Assembly (NCBI GenBank): GCA_964636545.1
Contig: CAZWSR010000001.1
Location: 1-64,000 of the forward strand
DNA length: 64,000 nucleotides
Direction: 5' to 3'
Origin: Candidatus Undinarchaeota archaeon
Lineage (GTDB): Archaea > Undinarchaeota > Undinarchaeia > Undinarchaeales > UBA543
Both the position numbers and the translations under genes were made by a program. The notes beneath the pieces are model-generated. The model was not told the origin of the DNA. It saw only the letters and a program-made list of their open reading frames with translations, and made no database searches. Below are positions 4,717 through 52,937 of the stretch, one piece after another (position 1 is the first letter of the stretch; every line of letters begins with the position of its first letter).

Positions 4717-6038
4717 GTTACAATACCAACTATAAACACTAAGAACAGCACCAGTGGAATAAAGTATCGTATAATATAAATTATCCAATGCGGCATTTTC
4801 AATCTTGTGTGCTTGTTAACTGCATTAATGAATTTCTTTGAACTCCAGAACCATGAAACAGTTATTGTGAAAATTAATGCAACAATTGGAAGCGTGAGTG
4901 AGCCAATCACATAATCAATCCCATCCAAAAATGGTTTTCCAAGAACTGAAAAACCAACTGAACTATAGCTGAGAACAGATGGAATACCAACTGCAAGCGC
5001 AATTGCGTAAATAATCCCAGTAGCTTTTCTACGTTTCATTCCATACTCGTCAATAAGTGAAGAAACACAACCTTCCCCAATTGAAATTGCTGAAGTTAAT
5101 CCAGTTAAGAATAAGAGAAGGAAAAAGATTGCACCGAAAACGCGGCCAAATGGAATTAGTGAAAACACTTTTGGAAGAGCTATAAACGCTAGCTCTGGCC
5201 CTTGGGCTGGGTTTAGTCCAAGAGAAAACACAAGTGGGAAAATCACTAAACCAGCAATTATTGCAATAATAGTGTCGCTAATGCTGATTGTGATTGCAGT
5301 AAGTGGAATATCCAATTTGCGGTCAGCATAACTTGCATAAGTCATTAGAAGGCCGAAGCCAACGCCGATTGAAAAGAATGCCTGGCTGAAAGCAAAAATC
5401 CAGATTTTCGGATCAGCAAGCATTGAGAAATTCGGAGTTAGGAAAAACTTGACACCAGCCATTGCATTTGGAAGTGTTAATGCTCTGATAAGCAAAATTA
5501 TTAGAAAAATAAAAACAATTGGCATTGTATATTTGCACAATTTTTCAATGCCTTTTTTTATTCCAAGTGAGTCAACAACAAACAAGATTGCAATACACGC
5601 AAGGAAAAATAATATTGGAAGGAGCGAACTGCTAAAACTAGCAAATGTTCCGTATCCAGTAAATGAAAAAATGAAGTATGCAAGAATCCAGCCAACGATT
5701 ACAACATAATAGCTCAGGATTGCCAGAAGAATGACCATGAAAAACCAGCCAAGGAATTTTGTTCTTGCTCCAAGTTTTTTGAAAAAGTGGAGGATTGATG
5801 TTTGGAATTCCCACCCAGCTGCAAATTCAAGAAGAACAACTGGAAACGCAATTAAAACAACAGCAATCAAATAAGGAATTAAAAAGGCTCCGCCACCGTT
5901 TTTGCCTGCAAGATATGGAAAACGCCAAATGTTTCCAATTCCAACTGCAGATGCAATTACTGCGAATATGAAACCGAGTTTTGACCATTGCTCTCTTTTA
6001 ACAACTTTTTTCAAAATTGGTTTCTGTTCCTCAACCAT
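4713..6038 (-). CDS. Sodium-dependent transporter, NSS/SNF family
   Basis: REQWS..GF, AVGIGNIWRFPY, NGGGAFLIPY, QAFFS, GPELAF; multiple TM helices. Confidence 0.95.
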   Translation of the reverse strand: MVEEQKPILKKVVKREQWSKLGFIFAVIASAVGIGNIWRFPYLAGKNGGGAFLIPYLIAVVLIAFPVVLLEFAAGWEFQTSILHFFKKLGARTKFLGWFFMVILLAILSYYVVIVGWILAYFIFSFTGYGTFASFSSSLLPILFFLACIAILFVVDSLGIKKGIEKLCKYTMPIVFIFLIILLIRALTLPNAMAGVKFFLTPNFSMLADPKIWIFAFSQAFFSIGVGFGLLMTYASYADRKLDIPLTAITISISDTIIAIIAGLVIFPLVFSLGLNPAQGPELAFIALPKVFSLIPFGRVFGAIFFLLLFLTGLTSAISIGEGCVSSLIDEYGMKRRKATGIIYAIALAVGIPSVLSYSSVGFSVLGKPFLDGIDYVIGSLTLPIVALIFTITVSWFWSSKKFINAVNKHTRLKMPHWIIYIIRYFIPLVLFLVFIVGIVT

Positions 6039-6080
6039 GAGCTGAGCTAGGCAAGAAGGGTATTAATACTTTTTTAGAAT

Positions 6081-6320
6081 CTAGAACAACATCTCTTCCA
6101 AGTCAGTTTCACCAATATTAACTGTAATTGGTGCTTGTCCAGGAGCTCTTCGCACAACAGTCATTGGAACAATTCTCTTTTTAAATTCTGCAACTGCGAT
6201 TTCAGTTGGGTCAGTAATATCTGTCTTAATTAAAATAGGTGCGCCCATTGAAATTTGCAAAGCTCTAGCTCCAATAATTCTAGCTCGTTCAAAACGTGTA
6301 AGTTTGTTTACTGTGTACAT
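6081..6320 (-). CDS. rpoK: RNA polymerase subunit Rpo6 (K)
   Basis: [22 protein letters not shown]. Confidence 0.97.
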
Positions 6321-6416
6321 TTGAGTATTATAATGGATTATGAGGGGTTATATAAAGGTTCGGTAATTGCAGAAAGAGGATAGATTTTTAAAGATACAAT
6401 AACTACCCAAATTATT

Positions 6417-6767
6417 ATGAAAATCACTGGAAATATTGTAAAACACTTTATTTTTGAAATACTGATGATTTGTGGCGGACTAGCTGCAATATCAATTCTT
6501 CACACAAATACAATGGCATTGACACTTGCTATGATTTTGATTGGAGCACTAATGCTCAAATTTTGGCATAAAAAATTAGATATATTATTTTTTGTAACAG
6601 CAGCAATAATAGGGCCTATTGGCGAAATTGTGTCTATTCAATCAGGAGTTTGGAATTATAGTATTCAGCATATTTGGGGAATTCCACTTTGGCTGCCACT
6701 TGTTTGGGGATTCTCATTTTTAATGATAAAAAGAGTTTCTAATACGCTTTCAAGAATAGAATTATAA
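6417..6767 (+). CDS. Small membrane protein (DUF2878-like)
   Basis: Four TM segments, GPIGE...GVWNY...GIPLWLPLVWG. Confidence 0.65.
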   Translation: MKITGNIVKHFIFEILMICGGLAAISILHTNTMALTLAMILIGALMLKFWHKKLDILFFVTAAIIGPIGEIVSIQSGVWNYSIQHIWGIPLWLPLVWGFSFLMIKRVSNTLSRIEL

Positions 6768-7562
6768 ACTAATACACTGAGCATGTGGAGTTACTTTAAA
6801 TATTTCTTCATAATTTTTAGAAGCTTCACAAAATCTTTTTGAATCTCCTCAATAACTGCACAATTTTTTGGATTATCAAATAGAATATCTGCGGCAACAT
6901 CTAAAAGTTCTGACCATCGCTCTTTTTTCTCTTCTGCAGAAAGCTCTTCAATTTCACCATATTTTTCACGTATTTTTTTAGAGGCAGCCACATCATCTTT
7001 TTCGTCATAGAATATATTAAATTCAACTGGAAGAACTCTATTTTTAAAATCACCAATATAAAACGCTGGTGTAATAGAATTAAGATGAATTTCAAAAATC
7101 TTTTTGTTAGTTAAGGGGAGCCCATATCTTTTTAGTTGTTCACCCCACTTAGGAACTTCTTTAATAAACTTTTTTAATTTTGAAGGATATGATGTTTTTG
7201 AAAAAGACATAAGGAAAAAAGAAGCAGATTCAAAAAAAGTTGGAGTAGATTCCTTAAAGAATTGACTTGAGTCTGCAACATGAGTTTCATGGACATCAAT
7301 AATTGCATCTATATTTTCATTTAACCCATTACAATGATTTAGAATAGTTTCTCCAATTGATTTAGAATTATGATCCTCTATCAATGAAAGATCTAAAAAA
7401 TCAAAAAAAGGATCATCTGCAAAAACTGCTTCAAGATATTTACCAGTAAGATACGCAACACATTCTTTTTTGTGAACTCCATACATTATGAGAATCATAA
7501 TAATTAGAAGAAGAAACTAGCATTTAAACTTTTCACAAACTAATACACTGCGCGTGAGGAGT
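6762..7562. mobile_element. Putative integrated single-gene cassette bounded by a duplicated DUF424 3' end
   Basis: 6762-6791 and 7533-7562 are 25/30 identical and both encode TPHAQCISL* on the minus strand. Confidence 0.75.
6791..7498 (-). CDS. Hypothetical protein (very AT-rich orphan)
   Basis: 235-aa ORF; IDAIIDVHE weakly resembles the M14/desuccinylase Zn motif. Confidence 0.6.
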   Translation of the reverse strand: MILIMYGVHKKECVAYLTGKYLEAVFADDPFFDFLDLSLIEDHNSKSIGETILNHCNGLNENIDAIIDVHETHVADSSQFFKESTPTFFESASFFLMSFSKTSYPSKLKKFIKEVPKWGEQLKRYGLPLTNKKIFEIHLNSITPAFYIGDFKNRVLPVEFNIFYDEKDDVAASKKIREKYGEIEELSAEEKKERWSELLDVAADILFDNPKNCAVIEEIQKDFVKLLKIMKKYLK

Positions 7563-7829
7563 TCCTTGAATTCGAATAATATGCTCATCAGTAATCAATC
7601 CCATTTCTTTTGCTTTTCCAATAACTCTTTCCCCAACTAAATTAGCAATATTGCAATTTTTCAATTTCTCTTCAAGTTGTTCAAGCAAAATTGTTTCACC
7701 ACCATAATAAGTTGGATCAACATGAATTTGCAACTCACCTTCCTCAAAAGTCTGACCTAGCAATTCCTTGTCGCAGGCAGCTAATACAACTGTTCCTTCC
7801 ATTGATTTTTGAATTTTTATTGAGACCAT
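7533..7829 (-). CDS. DUF424 family protein
   Basis: VLAACDKELLG..F.EG, ANLVGERVI..A, I.GTPHAQ. Confidence 0.9.
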   Translation of the reverse strand: MVSIKIQKSMEGTVVLAACDKELLGQTFEEGELQIHVDPTYYGGETILLEQLEEKLKNCNIANLVGERVIGKAKEMGLITDEHIIRIQGTPHAQCISL

Positions 7830-7836
7830 TTTTACT

Positions 7837-7894
7837 TGTTATTCGTTATTGGTTGTTCGTTATTCGTTACGAAAAACGAATGACGAAAGACGAA
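7837..7894. repeat. Heptamer palindromic array (TTATTCG)n/(AACGAAT)n
   Basis: About 4 units of TTRTTSG followed by about 4 inverted RACGAAW units. Confidence 0.8.
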
Positions 7895-8224
7895 TTACTT
7901 TTTTCCACCCCCTTCCTCTATTAAATACTTTTCAATCTCCGCAACTTTCGGCATAAGAGTTGCGAAAGTATCATCATCTGATTTTGATTTGTAAGCAGAC
8001 CAGTCAGCAAGCAAAACAAACAAGTTTGCAGTTGAGCCAACCCCATTCAGCACAACAGCATATCCTTTTTGACGAACATCTTTGTATGCAGTAATTGGAA
8101 CTTTTGTTCTAGGATTTCCTTCAATTTGTGACCATAAAGAGTCTAATGCATCTTCCTCAACTTTAACAAAATACTTTTTGTACTTGCTTTCTGCGATGAT
8201 TGTTTCAAATTTTTTTGATTTCAT
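7895..8224 (-). CDS. Hypothetical protein
   Basis: 109-aa ORF bracketed by two heptamer palindromes. Confidence 0.65.
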   Translation of the reverse strand: MKSKKFETIIAESKYKKYFVKVEEDALDSLWSQIEGNPRTKVPITAYKDVRQKGYAVVLNGVGSTANLFVLLADWSAYKSKSDDDTFATLMPKVAEIEKYLIEEGGGKK

Positions 8225-8246
8225 TTTTATTGGTTAAATTTGTGAA

Positions 8247-8323
8247 GGTATCGGGGATCGGGTGTCGGGGATCGGGTGTCGGGGATCGGGCCTGAACCCA
8301 GATACCTGATGCCTGATCCCTGA
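8247..8323. repeat. Heptamer palindromic array (TCGGGGA/TCGGGTG)n / (CCTGATN)n
   Basis: TCGGGGA TCGGGTG x2.5, then CCTGAAC CCAGATA CCTGATG CCTGATC. Confidence 0.85.
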
Positions 8324-8332
8324 GTAGATTAT

Positions 8333-8755
8333 TCAAATTTTCCTTATTGGATATTTAGCAGAACACGCCCTGCACTTTATCCATGGAACGCCCTCAACCA
8401 TTCGCAATTCAGTATCTGGTTTTTTACATTCTTTGCAAATAACAAATTCATTAACATATGTTGCAAGTTTCTGATTCAAAAACGCATTGTTCTTAGCGGT
8501 TTTTAATCGAAGACGATGAGCTTCAAGTTCTCCTCTTGACCCAGTTTCCAGAGCCAAATACTTTTGCAAATGTGCTGTGTCCCTCTCCAGAGTTCTGGCA
8601 ACCTCAGTAAAATTCTTAATTAAAGTCTGATTACCTTCAATAAATGACTCAAACTTAGGCATTTCAAAACGAACTACTTCAACCTCAGTTGTGTCAGGCA
8701 AGCCCTCGCGTGCCCTATTCAATAATTTTTTGTATTCATCTTCAGTTGTCATCAT
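8333..8755 (-). CDS. eif2b: Translation initiation factor aIF-2 beta
   Basis: YKKLLNRA, RFEMP, EGNQTLIKNF, CKEC..PDT...CRAC Zn ribbon. Confidence 0.96.
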   Translation of the reverse strand: MMTTEDEYKKLLNRAREGLPDTTEVEVVRFEMPKFESFIEGNQTLIKNFTEVARTLERDTAHLQKYLALETGSRGELEAHRLRLKTAKNNAFLNQKLATYVNEFVICKECKKPDTELRMVEGVPWIKCRACSAKYPIRKI

Positions 8756-16972: not shown

Positions 16973-17002
16973 TATTAATTAACTGGAGTGAGTTTATTGA
17001 GT

Positions 17003-18184
17003 ATGAAATTCTACATTGAAACTTACGGTTGTTCTAGGAATCAAGCAGATTCAGAAGCAATAGCTGGAGCACTTGCTGAAGAACATGAACAGGTTTTGAA
17101 TGCTAATGACGCCGATATTGTTGTTGTAAACACCTGTATTGTGAAAACTCCAACTGAAAATAAGATTTTGAAAGCTTTGAAGAAATATTCTAATAAAAAA
17201 CTGATTGTTGCTGGTTGTATGTCAGTGGCGCAGGTGGAGTTAATTAAAGAAACAGTGCCAAATGCAGAAATTTGGGGAGTTAAGCATGAGGATGTTCTGG
17301 AAGGACCGCGGATTAGAACAAATAAAATTGTTAGTATAATTCCGATTTCATCTGGATGTCTTGGAGATTGTACTTATTGTATTGTTAAAAAAGCTCGTGG
17401 AAAATTAAAAAGTTATTCTCAAGAGAAAATAATTTCTGCAATTGAGAAATCAGTTGCTGATGGTTGTAAGGAAATTTGGATAACTGCTCAGGACACTGGA
17501 GCTTATGGAATTGACACTGGAACAAGCTTGCCAGCGCTTTTAGAGGAAATTTGCAAAGTTTCTGGAGATTTCAGGGTTCGGGTTGGTATGATGAACCCAA
17601 ATCATGCAATGAAAATGCTTCCAGCACTTGTGAAAGCACTTCAGCACGAGAAAATGTTCAAGTTTTTGCATTTGCCAGTTCAGTCAGGAAATGACAAAGT
17701 TTTGAAAGAAATGAATCGATTTTACACTGTTGCTGATTATAAGAAAATAATTGAGTTTGTTAAGAAAGAAATTCCACAAATTACAATTTCCACTGATGTT
17801 ATTGTTGGTTTTCCTGGAGAAACTAATGAGCAATTTGAAGAAAGTTTGAAATTAGTTGAGCAGACAGAGCCAGATATTGTGAATATTTCAAGATATGGAG
17901 CACGGCCGGGCACTCCTGCAGCTGAACTTGAACAACACCAAGAAATTACTAAAAAAGAAAGGAGCAGAGCAATGACAATACTTGTTAGGCAAATTGGGCA
18001 AAAGCAGAATAATGAGTGGTTAGATTGGGAAGGAGAAGTTCTGATTGATGAAATTGGCAAAGAAAATGATTTTATTGGAAGAAATTTTGCGTATAAGCCA
18101 ATTGTTGTGAAAGGAAAACGAGAACTTGGTGAGTTTGTTAAAATTAAGGTTGGGAAAGCAACTGAGAATTATTTAGTTTCTTAA
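17003..18184 (+). CDS. MiaB-like tRNA methylthiotransferase (archaeal MtaB/e-MtaB type)
   Basis: ETYGCSRN..DSE, NTC.VK, CLGDCTYC radical SAM motif, TDVIVGFPGET, C-terminal TRAM. Confidence 0.92.
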   Translation: MKFYIETYGCSRNQADSEAIAGALAEEHEQVLNANDADIVVVNTCIVKTPTENKILKALKKYSNKKLIVAGCMSVAQVELIKETVPNAEIWGVKHEDVLEGPRIRTNKIVSIIPISSGCLGDCTYCIVKKARGKLKSYSQEKIISAIEKSVADGCKEIWITAQDTGAYGIDTGTSLPALLEEICKVSGDFRVRVGMMNPNHAMKMLPALVKALQHEKMFKFLHLPVQSGNDKVLKEMNRFYTVADYKKIIEFVKKEIPQITISTDVIVGFPGETNEQFEESLKLVEQTEPDIVNISRYGARPGTPAAELEQHQEITKKERSRAMTILVRQIGQKQNNEWLDWEGEVLIDEIGKENDFIGRNFAYKPIVVKGKRELGEFVKIKVGKATENYLVS

Positions 18185-19020
18185 GAGAATAGTAATTCTT
18201 AAAAACAATGAAAACCAATAGGACTTAATGAGAGACCCAACAAAAAATTTAAAACATGCTCTTGAAAAAGTAATAGAGCTATATCCAGAATATGCTAATG
18301 AAAAAACTATTGATGTTTTTTCAGAAAAAATAGAAGGAAATATACCATACAAAGGCGTGACACTTGCGATGTATCTCAGAATCCTCTCAAACGCCTATAG
18401 AAACAATCAAGAGAAATTGACAGAAGGATACATAAAAGATGCAGTAGGCAATAAAAATCGAAAAAAACAATGTATACTGATACTAAAACAGGAACAAGAA
18501 TTAACAAAAAAAGTAGCAGAGATATCACACAATATAATTAATAAAAGTAGAATATCATCATTTGAAAAAGTAGTGGAATTGTATCCAAAATACTTTGACG
18601 AAAAAAATATGCGAGATTTTTCAAAAAAAATAAGAGGAGAAATAGAATACTCAGCTGCAACACTGGCTCAGCAACTTGGTATTCTCGCAGATGCCTACAA
18701 AAATAACACAGGAGATCTCACAGAAAAGAGTATACAACGAATAAGGTGTACGCATAGAAATAGAAAAAACCAACTCATAAGCCTATTAAAACACGAACCA
18801 GAATTAATGAAAACAGTAGCAAAAATTGGTTGTTTCTTCAAAAACAAAAAAAGATTCAGAGGAAAAGAGTATCTTAAAGAAAAATACTATGGAAGCGGAA
18901 TATTGTTAGAAAAACTTGCACACTTTCTAGAAATAATGTTTGGATGGAAACCTACAATCCTTAATCAAGCAGCACATAATCCAAGGGCAAGAAGAGCCTG
19001 AGAATTATTTAGTTTCTTAA
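18162..19020. mobile_element. Putative integrated single-gene cassette with perfect 23-bp direct repeats
   Basis: CTGAGAATTATTTAGTTTCTTAA at 18162-18184 (methylthiotransferase 3' end) and 18998-19020. Confidence 0.8.
18228..19001 (+). CDS. Hypothetical protein made of two tandem ~100-aa repeats
   Basis: EKVIELYPEY..SEKIEG.I.Y...TLA..L.IL..AY.NN...LTE...NRK.Q.I..LK.E.EL.K.VA.I occurs twice. Confidence 0.75.
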   Translation: MRDPTKNLKHALEKVIELYPEYANEKTIDVFSEKIEGNIPYKGVTLAMYLRILSNAYRNNQEKLTEGYIKDAVGNKNRKKQCILILKQEQELTKKVAEISHNIINKSRISSFEKVVELYPKYFDEKNMRDFSKKIRGEIEYSAATLAQQLGILADAYKNNTGDLTEKSIQRIRCTHRNRKNQLISLLKHEPELMKTVAKIGCFFKNKKRFRGKEYLKEKYYGSGILLEKLAHFLEIMFGWKPTILNQAAHNPRARRA

Positions 19021-52736: not shown

Positions 52737-52825
52737 GCGGGGGTAGCAAAGCCTGGTCAAATGTGCTAGGTTGAGGGCCTAGTTCCTTAGTGGATTCGAG
52801 GGTTCAAATCCCTTCCTCCGCACCA
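52737..52825 (+). tRNA. tRNA-Leu(GAG)
   Basis: GCGGGGG acceptor, CTAGG-TTGAGGG-CCTAG, long V arm, GGTTCAAATCC, A73 with encoded CCA. Confidence 0.95.
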
Positions 52826-52937
52826 ATTTCTTAAAACAGTAATTTGAACCAATTTCAAAACAGGGCTTCGCGAAGCGAACGCCCTTATGCCATCGTCCGC
52901 GGCAAGGCGGACTGTTCGAACCTCGTCCCCCGCATCA
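52826..52937. mobile_element. Mini hairpin element plus displaced tRNA-Leu 3' end (att-like)
   Basis: 52914-52937 matches the tRNA 3' end at 18/24; 24-bp identity to 13184-13207. Confidence 0.6.

Follow-up and report, generated by a model that had tools for sequence, protein, structure and literature searches.

A stretch of 64,000 nucleotides from a Candidatus Undinarchaeota archaeon (assembly GCA_964636545.1, contig CAZWSR010000001.1, positions 1–64,000; hereafter the window) carries, within the last codons of a DUF424 gene, a small insert that holds one orphan gene and appears to have brought a replacement end for the gene that it entered. Indeed, the last ten codons of the DUF424 gene are present twice, 771 nt apart, on either side of an AT-rich open reading frame (ORF) and, judging by the sequences, the end in use is the incoming one and the displaced end the native one. 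An insertion carrying a replacement tail is well supported at this locus. Moreover, the event seems to belong to a recurring class in the genus, made up of one-gene or one-operon cassettes and of structured mini-elements of ~140 nt, which sit at the 3′ ends of conserved genes and of tRNAs and provide each target with its own replacement end.

The genome that contains the window (G000) is a metagenome assembly of 840 kb with a G+C content of 37%. It was compared with its phylum, represented by 17 species genomes in the collection, and within its genus with only two congeners (G001 and G002); all three are metagenome assemblies, with a completeness of 83% for G000 and of 78–83% over the three. 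Most of G002 and G001 was rebuilt from pieces, after which the scan for duplicated tails described below was repeated. The listed metagenome runs that hold parts of positions 6300–7900 number 20, from 16 studies, and all are marine or vent metagenomes; the metagenome check bore on the contigs of four runs, in which rare variants are dropped, and on the DUF424 locus only.

The DUF424 locus

The DUF424 gene (minus strand, positions 7533–7829; PF04242, E = 2e-24) encodes a protein of 98 amino acids which is 84% and 67% identical to its orthologues in G001 and G002, respectively. Its in-use tail, consisting of the last nine codons and a TGA stop (7533–7562), is the incoming end, and weak similarity to the other copy continues up to position 7570. 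A spacer of 34 nt (7499–7532) separates the DUF424 stop codon from the cargo, a co-directional ORF of 235 amino acids (6791–7498, minus strand) whose TAA stop (6791–6793) has one base in common with the displaced tail, namely the first of that tail. This second copy, the native end of the gene (6762–6791, minus strand), terminates with TAA; its similarity to the in-use tail reaches position 6799, and its positions 6762–6767 are common to the end of the convergent neighboring gene (6417–6767, plus strand), which encodes a membrane protein of 116 amino acids belonging to no family. The G+C content of the insert is 29.1% vs 36.2% in the 600 nt on the gene side, and a TTTAAA word, read by eye ~25 nt upstream of the cargo ATG, is possibly an archaeal TATA box.

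The two tails are identical at 25 of their 30 bases, in agreement with the initial annotation, which had reported the duplication, its spacing and the AT-rich orphan enclosed by it. The five differences (in use/displaced: CCT/CCA, CAC/CAT, GCG/GCT, TTG/TTA and TGA/TAA) are each synonymous, stop codon included. That all differences are synonymous, as had been claimed, is correct for the last ten codons but not for the three codons further upstream, where the similarity weakens (31 of 39 over 39 nt) and the three extra differences are non-synonymous (IQG vs FKV), one of them creating the TAA that ends the cargo ORF. Among the repeats of the 2.4 kb examined around the insert, this pair (D2; 6766–6799 vs 7537–7570, 34 nt, 85% identity, spacing 771) is the longest two-copy family, while no inverted repeats were found at the cassette ends by the same repeat search.

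When the last 30 nt of each ORF of at least 80 amino acids were compared with the 5 kb downstream over the whole genome (6,665,475 comparisons), matches of at least 25/30 were obtained in three places only, among which the DUF424 gene. At the protein level, a scan with the last eight residues and the stop of ORFs of at least 100 amino acids, within 3 kb, returned four matches of at least 7/8; as controls, the reversed peptide, the opposite strand and the upstream side were scanned, and all three were empty at this level. In a wider scan allowing ORFs of at least 60 amino acids and 40 kb, the DUF424 tail emerged as an 8/8 match and the reversed-peptide control was again empty. In the metagenomes, contigs without a single difference span the junction at the displaced tail in runs X1 (6710–7815) and X8 (6758–7031) and the junction at the in-use tail in runs X8 and X11. 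Run X1 may be the source sample of the assembly, the other runs being independent; since independent contigs with zero differences cross both junctions, the arrangement is not an assembly artefact.

The empty site predicted by the initial annotation was found in relatives. In G002, the DUF424 and membrane-protein genes are convergent, with an overlap of 6 nt and nothing between them, and the same arrangement is repeated in one metagenome contig (L032), the sole locus returned by a metagenome scan anchored on DUF424. In G001, rpoK, which encodes the RNA polymerase subunit K, is directly followed by DUF424, without the membrane-protein gene and the 235-amino-acid ORF. Both congeners contain one DUF424 gene each, hence two full paralogues followed by a deletion, the finding that would have contradicted the proposal, do not apply here. 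A contig of run X8 was also considered as a possible empty site: it matches 6585–6772 with two differences and is then unlike the window for 146 nt, and it was not counted as empty.

The direction of the replacement can be read from the same comparisons. The displaced tail is positioned with respect to the neighboring gene exactly like the live DUF424 end of G002, the overlap of 6 nt being kept, and it has 17 consecutive nucleotides identical to the live tail of G001. At the five differing sites, the displaced copy always carries the state of G001 or G002, whereas four of the five in-use states are derived. As the changes sit in the copy under selection and not in the unselected relic, the in-use tail must have arrived with the insert after having evolved as a coding sequence elsewhere, in line with the suggestion of the initial annotation that the two copies had been under coding selection in different genomes.

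Regarding the cargo, the 235-amino-acid protein matches no Pfam or PHROG family and has no paralogue in G000. Word-indexed searching returned only its own cluster, no match was obtained in the viral contigs or GTDB genome contigs searched, and two full-length relatives (34% and 32% identity) were recovered with HMMER among 1.84 billion representatives. The alignment of these three members contains 52 invariant columns, which indicates that the cargo is a real, albeit rare, protein family; no Pfam family is common to the three even at E-values up to 10. Its AlphaFold model is poor (predicted local distance difference test score, pLDDT, of 56.7), with no match in the PDB at an E-value of 0.001 or better using Foldseek. 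In a protein atlas, scores of 0.86–0.90 were obtained with DUF2119 and with zinc hydrolases resembling succinylglutamate desuccinylase-aspartoacylase (AstE-AspA), which weakly points to such an enzyme and serves as a lead only. The alignment also contains a conserved H-x-x-E motif near the N-terminus, which, we assume, would suit an AstE-AspA-like zinc hydrolase.

The surroundings of the insert have a history of their own. The membrane-protein gene, present at the locus in G000 and G002 and absent from G001, has no relatives beyond its own cluster. Its DNA is 93.2% identical between G000 and G002, vs 67–79% for the flanks, and its synonymous divergence (dS) is 0.30 between these genomes vs 0.90–1.54 for rpoK and DUF424; the dS of aIF2-beta is unreliable, since an indel shifts the codon comparison, and was not used. 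This gene (region 6356–6772) is lineage-restricted and shows signs of recent exchange. More generally, the three congeners are mosaics: G000 is nearer G001 for DUF424 (84 vs 67% amino acid identity) and RtcB (94 vs 84%), and nearer G002 than G001 for the methylthiotransferase (80 vs 74%), Dph2 (79 vs 72%) and LeuRS (84 vs 80%), while G000-like and G002-like alleles are found together in the same metagenome runs. On the other side of the DUF424 gene, the spacers at 7836–7900 and 8246–8321 contain lineage-specific simple-sequence hairpins, for instance three 14-nt tandem units followed by their complement, and G001 has different ones there.

Duplicated ends at other conserved genes

The initial annotation had advised looking for further duplicated gene ends, and these do exist: five in G000, one in G002 and one in G001. 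In G000, five conserved genes on top of DUF424 are followed at a short distance by a second, displaced version of their tail, namely those for a methylthiotransferase, the diphthamide synthase Dph2, PCNA, leucyl-tRNA synthetase (LeuRS) and RtcB, so that the cassettes are spread over different genes on four contigs. The methylthiotransferase gene, which encodes a radical S-adenosylmethionine (SAM) enzyme, lies in the window (16988–18184, plus strand; Pfam Radical_SAM, UPF0004 and TRAM) and has its in-use tail at 18162–18184. Its insert of 836 nt contains a co-directional orphan of 257 amino acids without a family (18228–19001, plus strand), for which searches returned only its own cluster and one relative at 92%. 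The TGA stop of this orphan is inside the displaced tail (18998–19020, plus strand), which is 23/23 identical to 18162–18184 and is followed by the flank that comes directly after the stop codon in G001 and G002. The insert behind Dph2 (contig C3, 739 nt) encodes a SAM methyltransferase of 234 amino acids (PF08241, 9e-9), and the one behind PCNA (contig C3, 630 nt) a DUF7557 protein together with a ParE/RelE toxin (phrog_1213, 3e-18), while LeuRS (contig C5, 172 nt) and RtcB (contig C7, 183 nt) have received non-coding elements. In G002, the tail of the HMG-CoA reductase gene is duplicated 549 nt downstream, around a gene for a GNAT protein of 159 amino acids, and the displaced tail matches the live gene of G000 at 19/19 nt. 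In G001, the tail of aIF2-gamma (C11:10160–12231) is duplicated 142 nt downstream; the insert holds a 45-nt exact copy of a sequence located upstream of an S6e-like gene, 1990 nt away, and this case looks like local copy-and-paste rather than foreign cargo.

These loci have an anatomy in common. In G000, the flank that follows the displaced tail is, for all five further genes, the one that directly follows the stop codon in G001 and/or G002, which provides an empty site for each of them in the congeners. Cargo is co-directional with the target in all five gene cassettes and ends within ~10 nt of the displaced tail, and the stop codon of the cargo results, at DUF424 and Dph2, from a change private to the relic. 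As to its nature, the cargo ranges from orphans to a SAM methyltransferase, a ParE/RelE toxin with its DUF7557 partner and a GNAT protein. The PCNA tails code for the same nine residues with eight base differences, all synonymous and including one switch of serine codon (TCA/AGT) and one of arginine codon (AGG/CGG). Over 63 nt, the RtcB tails have nine synonymous and four non-synonymous differences, AGC/TCT included, and comprise 32 identical bases followed by 24 of which eight differ, all of these synonymously. Congener similarity is higher for the displaced tail than for the in-use one at PCNA (21–27 vs 19–20 of 30) and RtcB (52–56 vs 45–47 of 63), as well as at LeuRS when compared with G002 (27 vs 22 of 33) but not with G001. 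For these three genes, the drop in identity to the congeners is limited to the last ~30 nt.

Several candidates from the tail scans were rejected as false positives. In G000 these were lysine-rich tails of ribosomal proteins (C4), a 1306-nt repeat (C7) and tandem repeats of ~335 nt (C18); in the congeners they were tandem paralogues (C9 and C17 of G001, C9 of G002), ORFs lying antisense to paralogues, among them P-loop ones (C7 and C2 of G001, C2 of G002), repeats beside spurious short ORFs (G001 C7 and C11) and a GC-rich repeat (G002 C4). Separately, a 75-nt imperfect direct repeat, with copies 2251 nt apart, surrounds ORFs of 198 and 113 amino acids on the minus strand of G002 C1 (~92402–94970, reverse-strand coordinates), a segment which may be a larger integrated element.

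The non-coding inserts of LeuRS and RtcB have a sequence of ~140 nt in common, which is present at seven loci in G000 (including L034:3612–3760 on C5 and L035 on C7) and at eight in G001, while searches of G002 and of 14 other genomes of the phylum gave no match. Three words resembling ACCAATT occur in it, as well as two hairpins, the loop of one being variable. Imperfect direct repeats of the target, 22–66 nt long, flank five of the 15 copies, and the targets so flanked include the 3′ end of a tRNA gene and two intergenic sites in G001. A second, related family, of ~70 nt, starts with the same word and forms two GC-rich hairpins, with compensatory changes in four of 15 predicted pairs; the three congeners contain 4, 12 and 10 copies of it, and two other genera one weak match each. 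Many of these copies come after a tRNA gene, whose last 14–24 nt are repeated behind the element, the repeated 14–18 nt being perfect at tRNA targets. In the window, one such element (52846–52912, plus strand) follows a tRNA-Leu gene (52737–52825) and precedes a degenerate second copy (18/24) of its last 24 nt (52914–52937, plus strand). In a search against Rfam, only tRNAs scored at or above the gathering threshold in the regions with both repeat families and in 6000–8400. From these sequences, it is evident that insertions at 3′ ends which keep a copy of the target are common in this genus.

Origin of the insert

How such an insert came to lie behind the DUF424 gene is best accounted for, in our opinion, by a small circle bearing a tail and the cargo, which would have recombined with the gene tail by a single crossover. 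From this proposal of the initial annotation, the insertion with a replacement tail is retained, while the circle and the crossover are plausible only, no contig with the corresponding join having been seen in four runs; on balance we nevertheless hold them to be probable, if by a small measure. The foreign cassette comprises bases 6792–7562, introduced at one point located 30 nt before the DUF424 end, with recipient DNA intact on both sides. Read on the minus strand, it brings its own version of the last nine codons with a stop, the 34-nt spacer with the TATA-like word and the 235-amino-acid gene ending at the junction. Because the cassette begins with its own copy of the tail, DUF424 stays intact, the native tail subsisting as a 30-nt relic against the membrane-protein gene, and because the incoming tail had evolved as coding sequence in another lineage, it differs only synonymously. 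A short tail-like site on the small mobile DNA would recombine with a gene tail and, at DUF424, the crossover may have taken place at the shared ACTCC: to its left the live gene is native-looking, to its right the live tail is derived, and the relic has the reverse pattern, its left bases carrying the cargo stop. Catalysis might be performed in trans by a recombinase encoded outside the assembled genome, or by host recombination acting on short homology. Afterwards, the mismatches between the repeats and the dependence of an essential gene on a cassette-borne tail would stabilize the insert. A dedicated process is favored by the number of genes at which such inserts recur, by their compact and co-directional cargo, of a type usual in mobile cassettes, and by a multi-copy element of like anatomy.

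A number of results weigh against the circle. The empty sites come from different species, none having been seen in a near-identical strain, and the contigs of the four runs, which drop rare variants, contained neither a join skipping the 771 nt nor a circle junction. No donor lineage emerged either; the cargo was not found in the 12 other genomes of the order, and a profile search of 16 phylum genomes was also empty. As stated in the initial annotation, there is no integrase in the DUF424 insert or in the 64-kb window; the tyrosine recombinases which it proposed to seek in the genome did not turn up, PF00589 giving no match in G000, G001 and G002, assemblies that are 78–83% complete, while the controls matched in 14/14 genomes and the family is present in 7 of the 17 phylum genomes. 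Serine recombinases (PF00239), IS110 and TnpB are likewise absent or below cut-off in G000, which is 83% complete. No DNA is common to any two of the gene cassettes, nor to a cassette and the remainder of the genome, and the target repeats have no common core across six sites (overall, at least seven target sequences are concerned), which is awkward for one site-specific enzyme; identical stretches of only 5–9 nt at PCNA, Dph2 and LeuRS are too short for ordinary homologous recombination. The folding of the junctions in seven cases was no better than that of shuffled sequences (z from −1.45 to +1.40, with RNA parameters), without any attC-like structure. Lastly, at DUF424 and Dph2 the displaced and in-use tails are about equally near the congeners, and at the methylthiotransferase the identity of the 23-nt repeat makes the comparison uninformative, so that there the displaced copy is not clearly the nearer one. 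A helper acting in trans may still exist, because the assemblies are incomplete and plasmids and viruses are not binned.

Could the same footprint arise without any dedicated element? A break near the end of the gene might prime on the chromosome of a relative already possessing the cargo behind DUF424, copy tail and cargo, and be closed by end joining. According to the accessible part of PMC5361080, homology-facilitated illegitimate recombination of this kind has been put forward to explain C-terminal displacement at Rhs and type VI secretion system (T6SS) loci and in effector-immunity arrays. Only breaks near the stop codon would insert, since longer homology lets the copied strand re-anneal, which explains why the tails seen are only short and mismatched; in addition, with spacers that are absent or replaced by overlaps, only insertions that duplicate the tail could survive. 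The recipient DNA is whole on either side of a single point, the foreign-like stretch starts sharply at the repeat, and no recombinase was found. Opportunity is not lacking either, given that the congeners exchange genes (dS of 0.30 vs 0.90–1.54 for the membrane-protein gene, and shifts in similarity from gene to gene) and that G000-like and G002-like alleles share metagenome runs. We nonetheless consider this one-ended priming unlikely: it does not say how the cargo had come to follow this very gene in the donor to begin with, it needs independent events at no fewer than seven genes and several tRNAs, always with tails of 23–63 nt and compact co-directional cargo, and it does not account for a ~140-nt element occurring with the same anatomy at several unrelated loci. 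Moreover, such recombination is several orders of magnitude rarer than homologous recombination, as far as the same portion of PMC5361080 reports.

Three further explanations have less in their favor. The insert could be the scar of a larger integrated virus or plasmid with its own integrase, deleted down to one gene between the remaining attL and attR, in the manner of cis-mobilizable elements (CIMEs). Genome reduction favors deletions, CIMEs retain attL and attR without an integrase (PMC6323972, available portion) and 3′-distal integration with a stop codon supplied by the element is documented in archaea, for 14 of 68 thaumarchaeal elements in the available portion of PMC6563490; the latter's smallest named element is nevertheless 2.6 kb long vs 0.17–0.84 kb for the inserts described here. 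As the whole space between the two tails is taken up, in all five gene cassettes, by an intact co-directional cargo and a short spacer upstream of it, which random deletions would not repeat, and as a six-frame search with PF00589 disclosed no integrase fragments at E-values up to 1, a decayed element is improbable. An even poorer case can be made for duplication in place, either as a long transposon-like target-site duplication or as a tandem duplication with deletion, followed by divergence of the copies. Direct repeats do flank the insert, the 14–18 nt repeated at tRNA targets are perfect and, in G001, the duplicated aIF2-gamma tail is beside the 45 nt that exactly match a sequence located 1990 nt upstream. 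But drift predicts changes in the relic, and it is the selected, in-use copy that contains five synonymous changes in nine codons while the relic keeps the states of the congeners; the serine codon-family switches at PCNA and RtcB would need two to three changes in one codon, the congeners have a single DUF424 gene and the cassette ends have no terminal inverted repeats, all of which makes this origin very improbable. As for chance similarity or a faulty assembly, which an AT-rich genome (37% G+C) assembled from metagenomes with co-occurring related species might have fostered, they are refuted for practical purposes by the scans (only three of 6.67 million comparisons at 25/30 or more, with empty protein controls), by the contigs with zero differences from independent runs and by the position of the displaced copy, exactly that of the live tail in G002.

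A bolder proposition may be put forward tentatively, which we regard as rather doubtful: a new gene-addition system in which promoter-bearing single-gene cassettes and structured mini-elements of 70–140 nt, each with its own, differently spelled version of the tail of its target, home to the last 20–60 nt of essential genes and tRNAs, moved by a trans-acting, possibly structure- or guide-directed recombinase of a new family. If this were true, the host gene would depend on the insert and the mismatched repeats would block its loss, making of these cassettes a functional analogue of integron cassettes with the tails of essential genes as landing pads.

Whatever the machinery, loss is regarded as the main way in which archaeal genomes of symbiont size change, and little is understood of how they acquire genes. 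In the present genome of 0.84 Mb, no fewer than six conserved genes carry an insert which rewrites their last codons and adds a gene, an operon or a structured element. A displaced tail just behind a live one is hence a footprint of gene gain that can be searched for in any genome, and it brings genes as diverse as orphans, toxin-antitoxin pairs and those of modification enzymes under a common mode of entry. Should a dedicated recombinase exist, it would form a compact system able to place cargo behind chosen genes without disrupting them; should there be none, short mismatched homology would suffice for repeated natural gene capture. Either outcome bears on the entry of orphan genes into reduced genomes.

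Comparison with known systems

Phage 21 provides the icd gene with a replacement 3′ end. Prophage e14 does likewise in icd of Escherichia coli, where the native end is left as the icdC fragment and the two ends differ mainly synonymously (PMC13626634, in its available part). The likeness with the DUF424 locus is close, as an element enters the 3′ part of a housekeeping gene, supplies a new end and keeps the old one downstream; however, e14 is described in that part of the report as ~15 kb long, with its own site-specific recombination and SOS-induced excision, whereas the DUF424 insert has 0.77 kb and one gene, no recombinase having been found in the assembly and no excision seen. In archaea, 14 of the 68 integrated elements of Thaumarchaeota lie in the 3′-distal stretches of protein genes, one of which is a diphthamide-synthesis gene (PMC6563490, same portion as above). 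Elements such as NitEve-E2 resemble the present cassettes by their archaeal hosts, the targeting of gene tails, the new stop codon, the short att repeats and the use of empty sites as proof. They differ by their integrases or casposases and their size of kilobases, the smallest named one (2.6 kb) having an integrase, while the inserts at six genes in 0.84 Mb are of 0.17–0.84 kb and have none. Tycheposons of Prochlorococcus, as depicted in the accessible part of the preprint, also concern marine streamlined genomes, with cargo shuttles that insert at 3′ ends of genes and partial tRNA copies left as scars, but these bacterial elements have tyrosine recombinases and replication modules, target seven tRNAs and extend over kilobases (bioRxiv 10.1101/2020.12.28.424599). 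With respect to tyrosine-recombinase elements in general, the DUF424 locus exhibits direct repeats of the target on both sides of the insert, a target gene kept intact by the end that the insert brings and an empty site in relatives, the on-element integrase being absent.

Other systems provide partial parallels. The CIMEs derived from streptococcal integrative and conjugative elements (ICEs) lie between attL and attR, lack their own integrase and transfer genes and need a helper; as presented in the portion of PMC6323972 at hand, they are deletion derivatives of bacterial ICEs sharing att sites with a resident helper, whereas neither a helper, an integrase nor a shared att core was found here. 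C-terminal displacement in Rhs, contact-dependent inhibition (CDI) and T6SS loci involves an incoming 3′ end with a downstream gene that leaves the old 3′ end orphaned further downstream, by a proposed route that needs no integrase; in the part of PMC5361080 considered, the newcomer is a toxin tip with its immunity gene, in contrast with the nine identical residues of a housekeeping gene and the unrelated cargo described here. Transposons and miniature inverted-repeat transposable elements are expected to have terminal inverted repeats and a short duplication identical at birth, whereas no inverted repeat lies at the cassette ends, the repeat measures 30–38 nt and the changes are in the copy under selection. 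Casposons rely on a Cas1 casposase, terminal inverted repeats and a duplication of 14–15 bp; the DUF424 insert has no room for Cas1, although no Cas1 search was made.

Integron cassettes, with one gene and a short recombination site in 0.5–1 kb, are a counterpart in format. Their cargo includes toxin-antitoxin pairs, acetyltransferases, methyltransferases and many orphans, a range which resembles the one encountered here. The differences are that no IntI, no attI array and no attC-like folding accompany the present cassettes, each of which is at a different gene, and that, unlike integron cassettes, they appear to bring their own promoter-like spacer, as far as spacers read by eye can tell. 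Searches of the open-access literature yielded no account of cassettes that sit at gene tails without an integrase in DPANN-like archaea. Elements which replace the 3′ ends of genes are known; what appears to be new here is the combination of a small size, the lack of a recognizable recombinase in three assemblies, the economy of a putative promoter and a single ORF, and the diversity of essential-gene tails that have been used.

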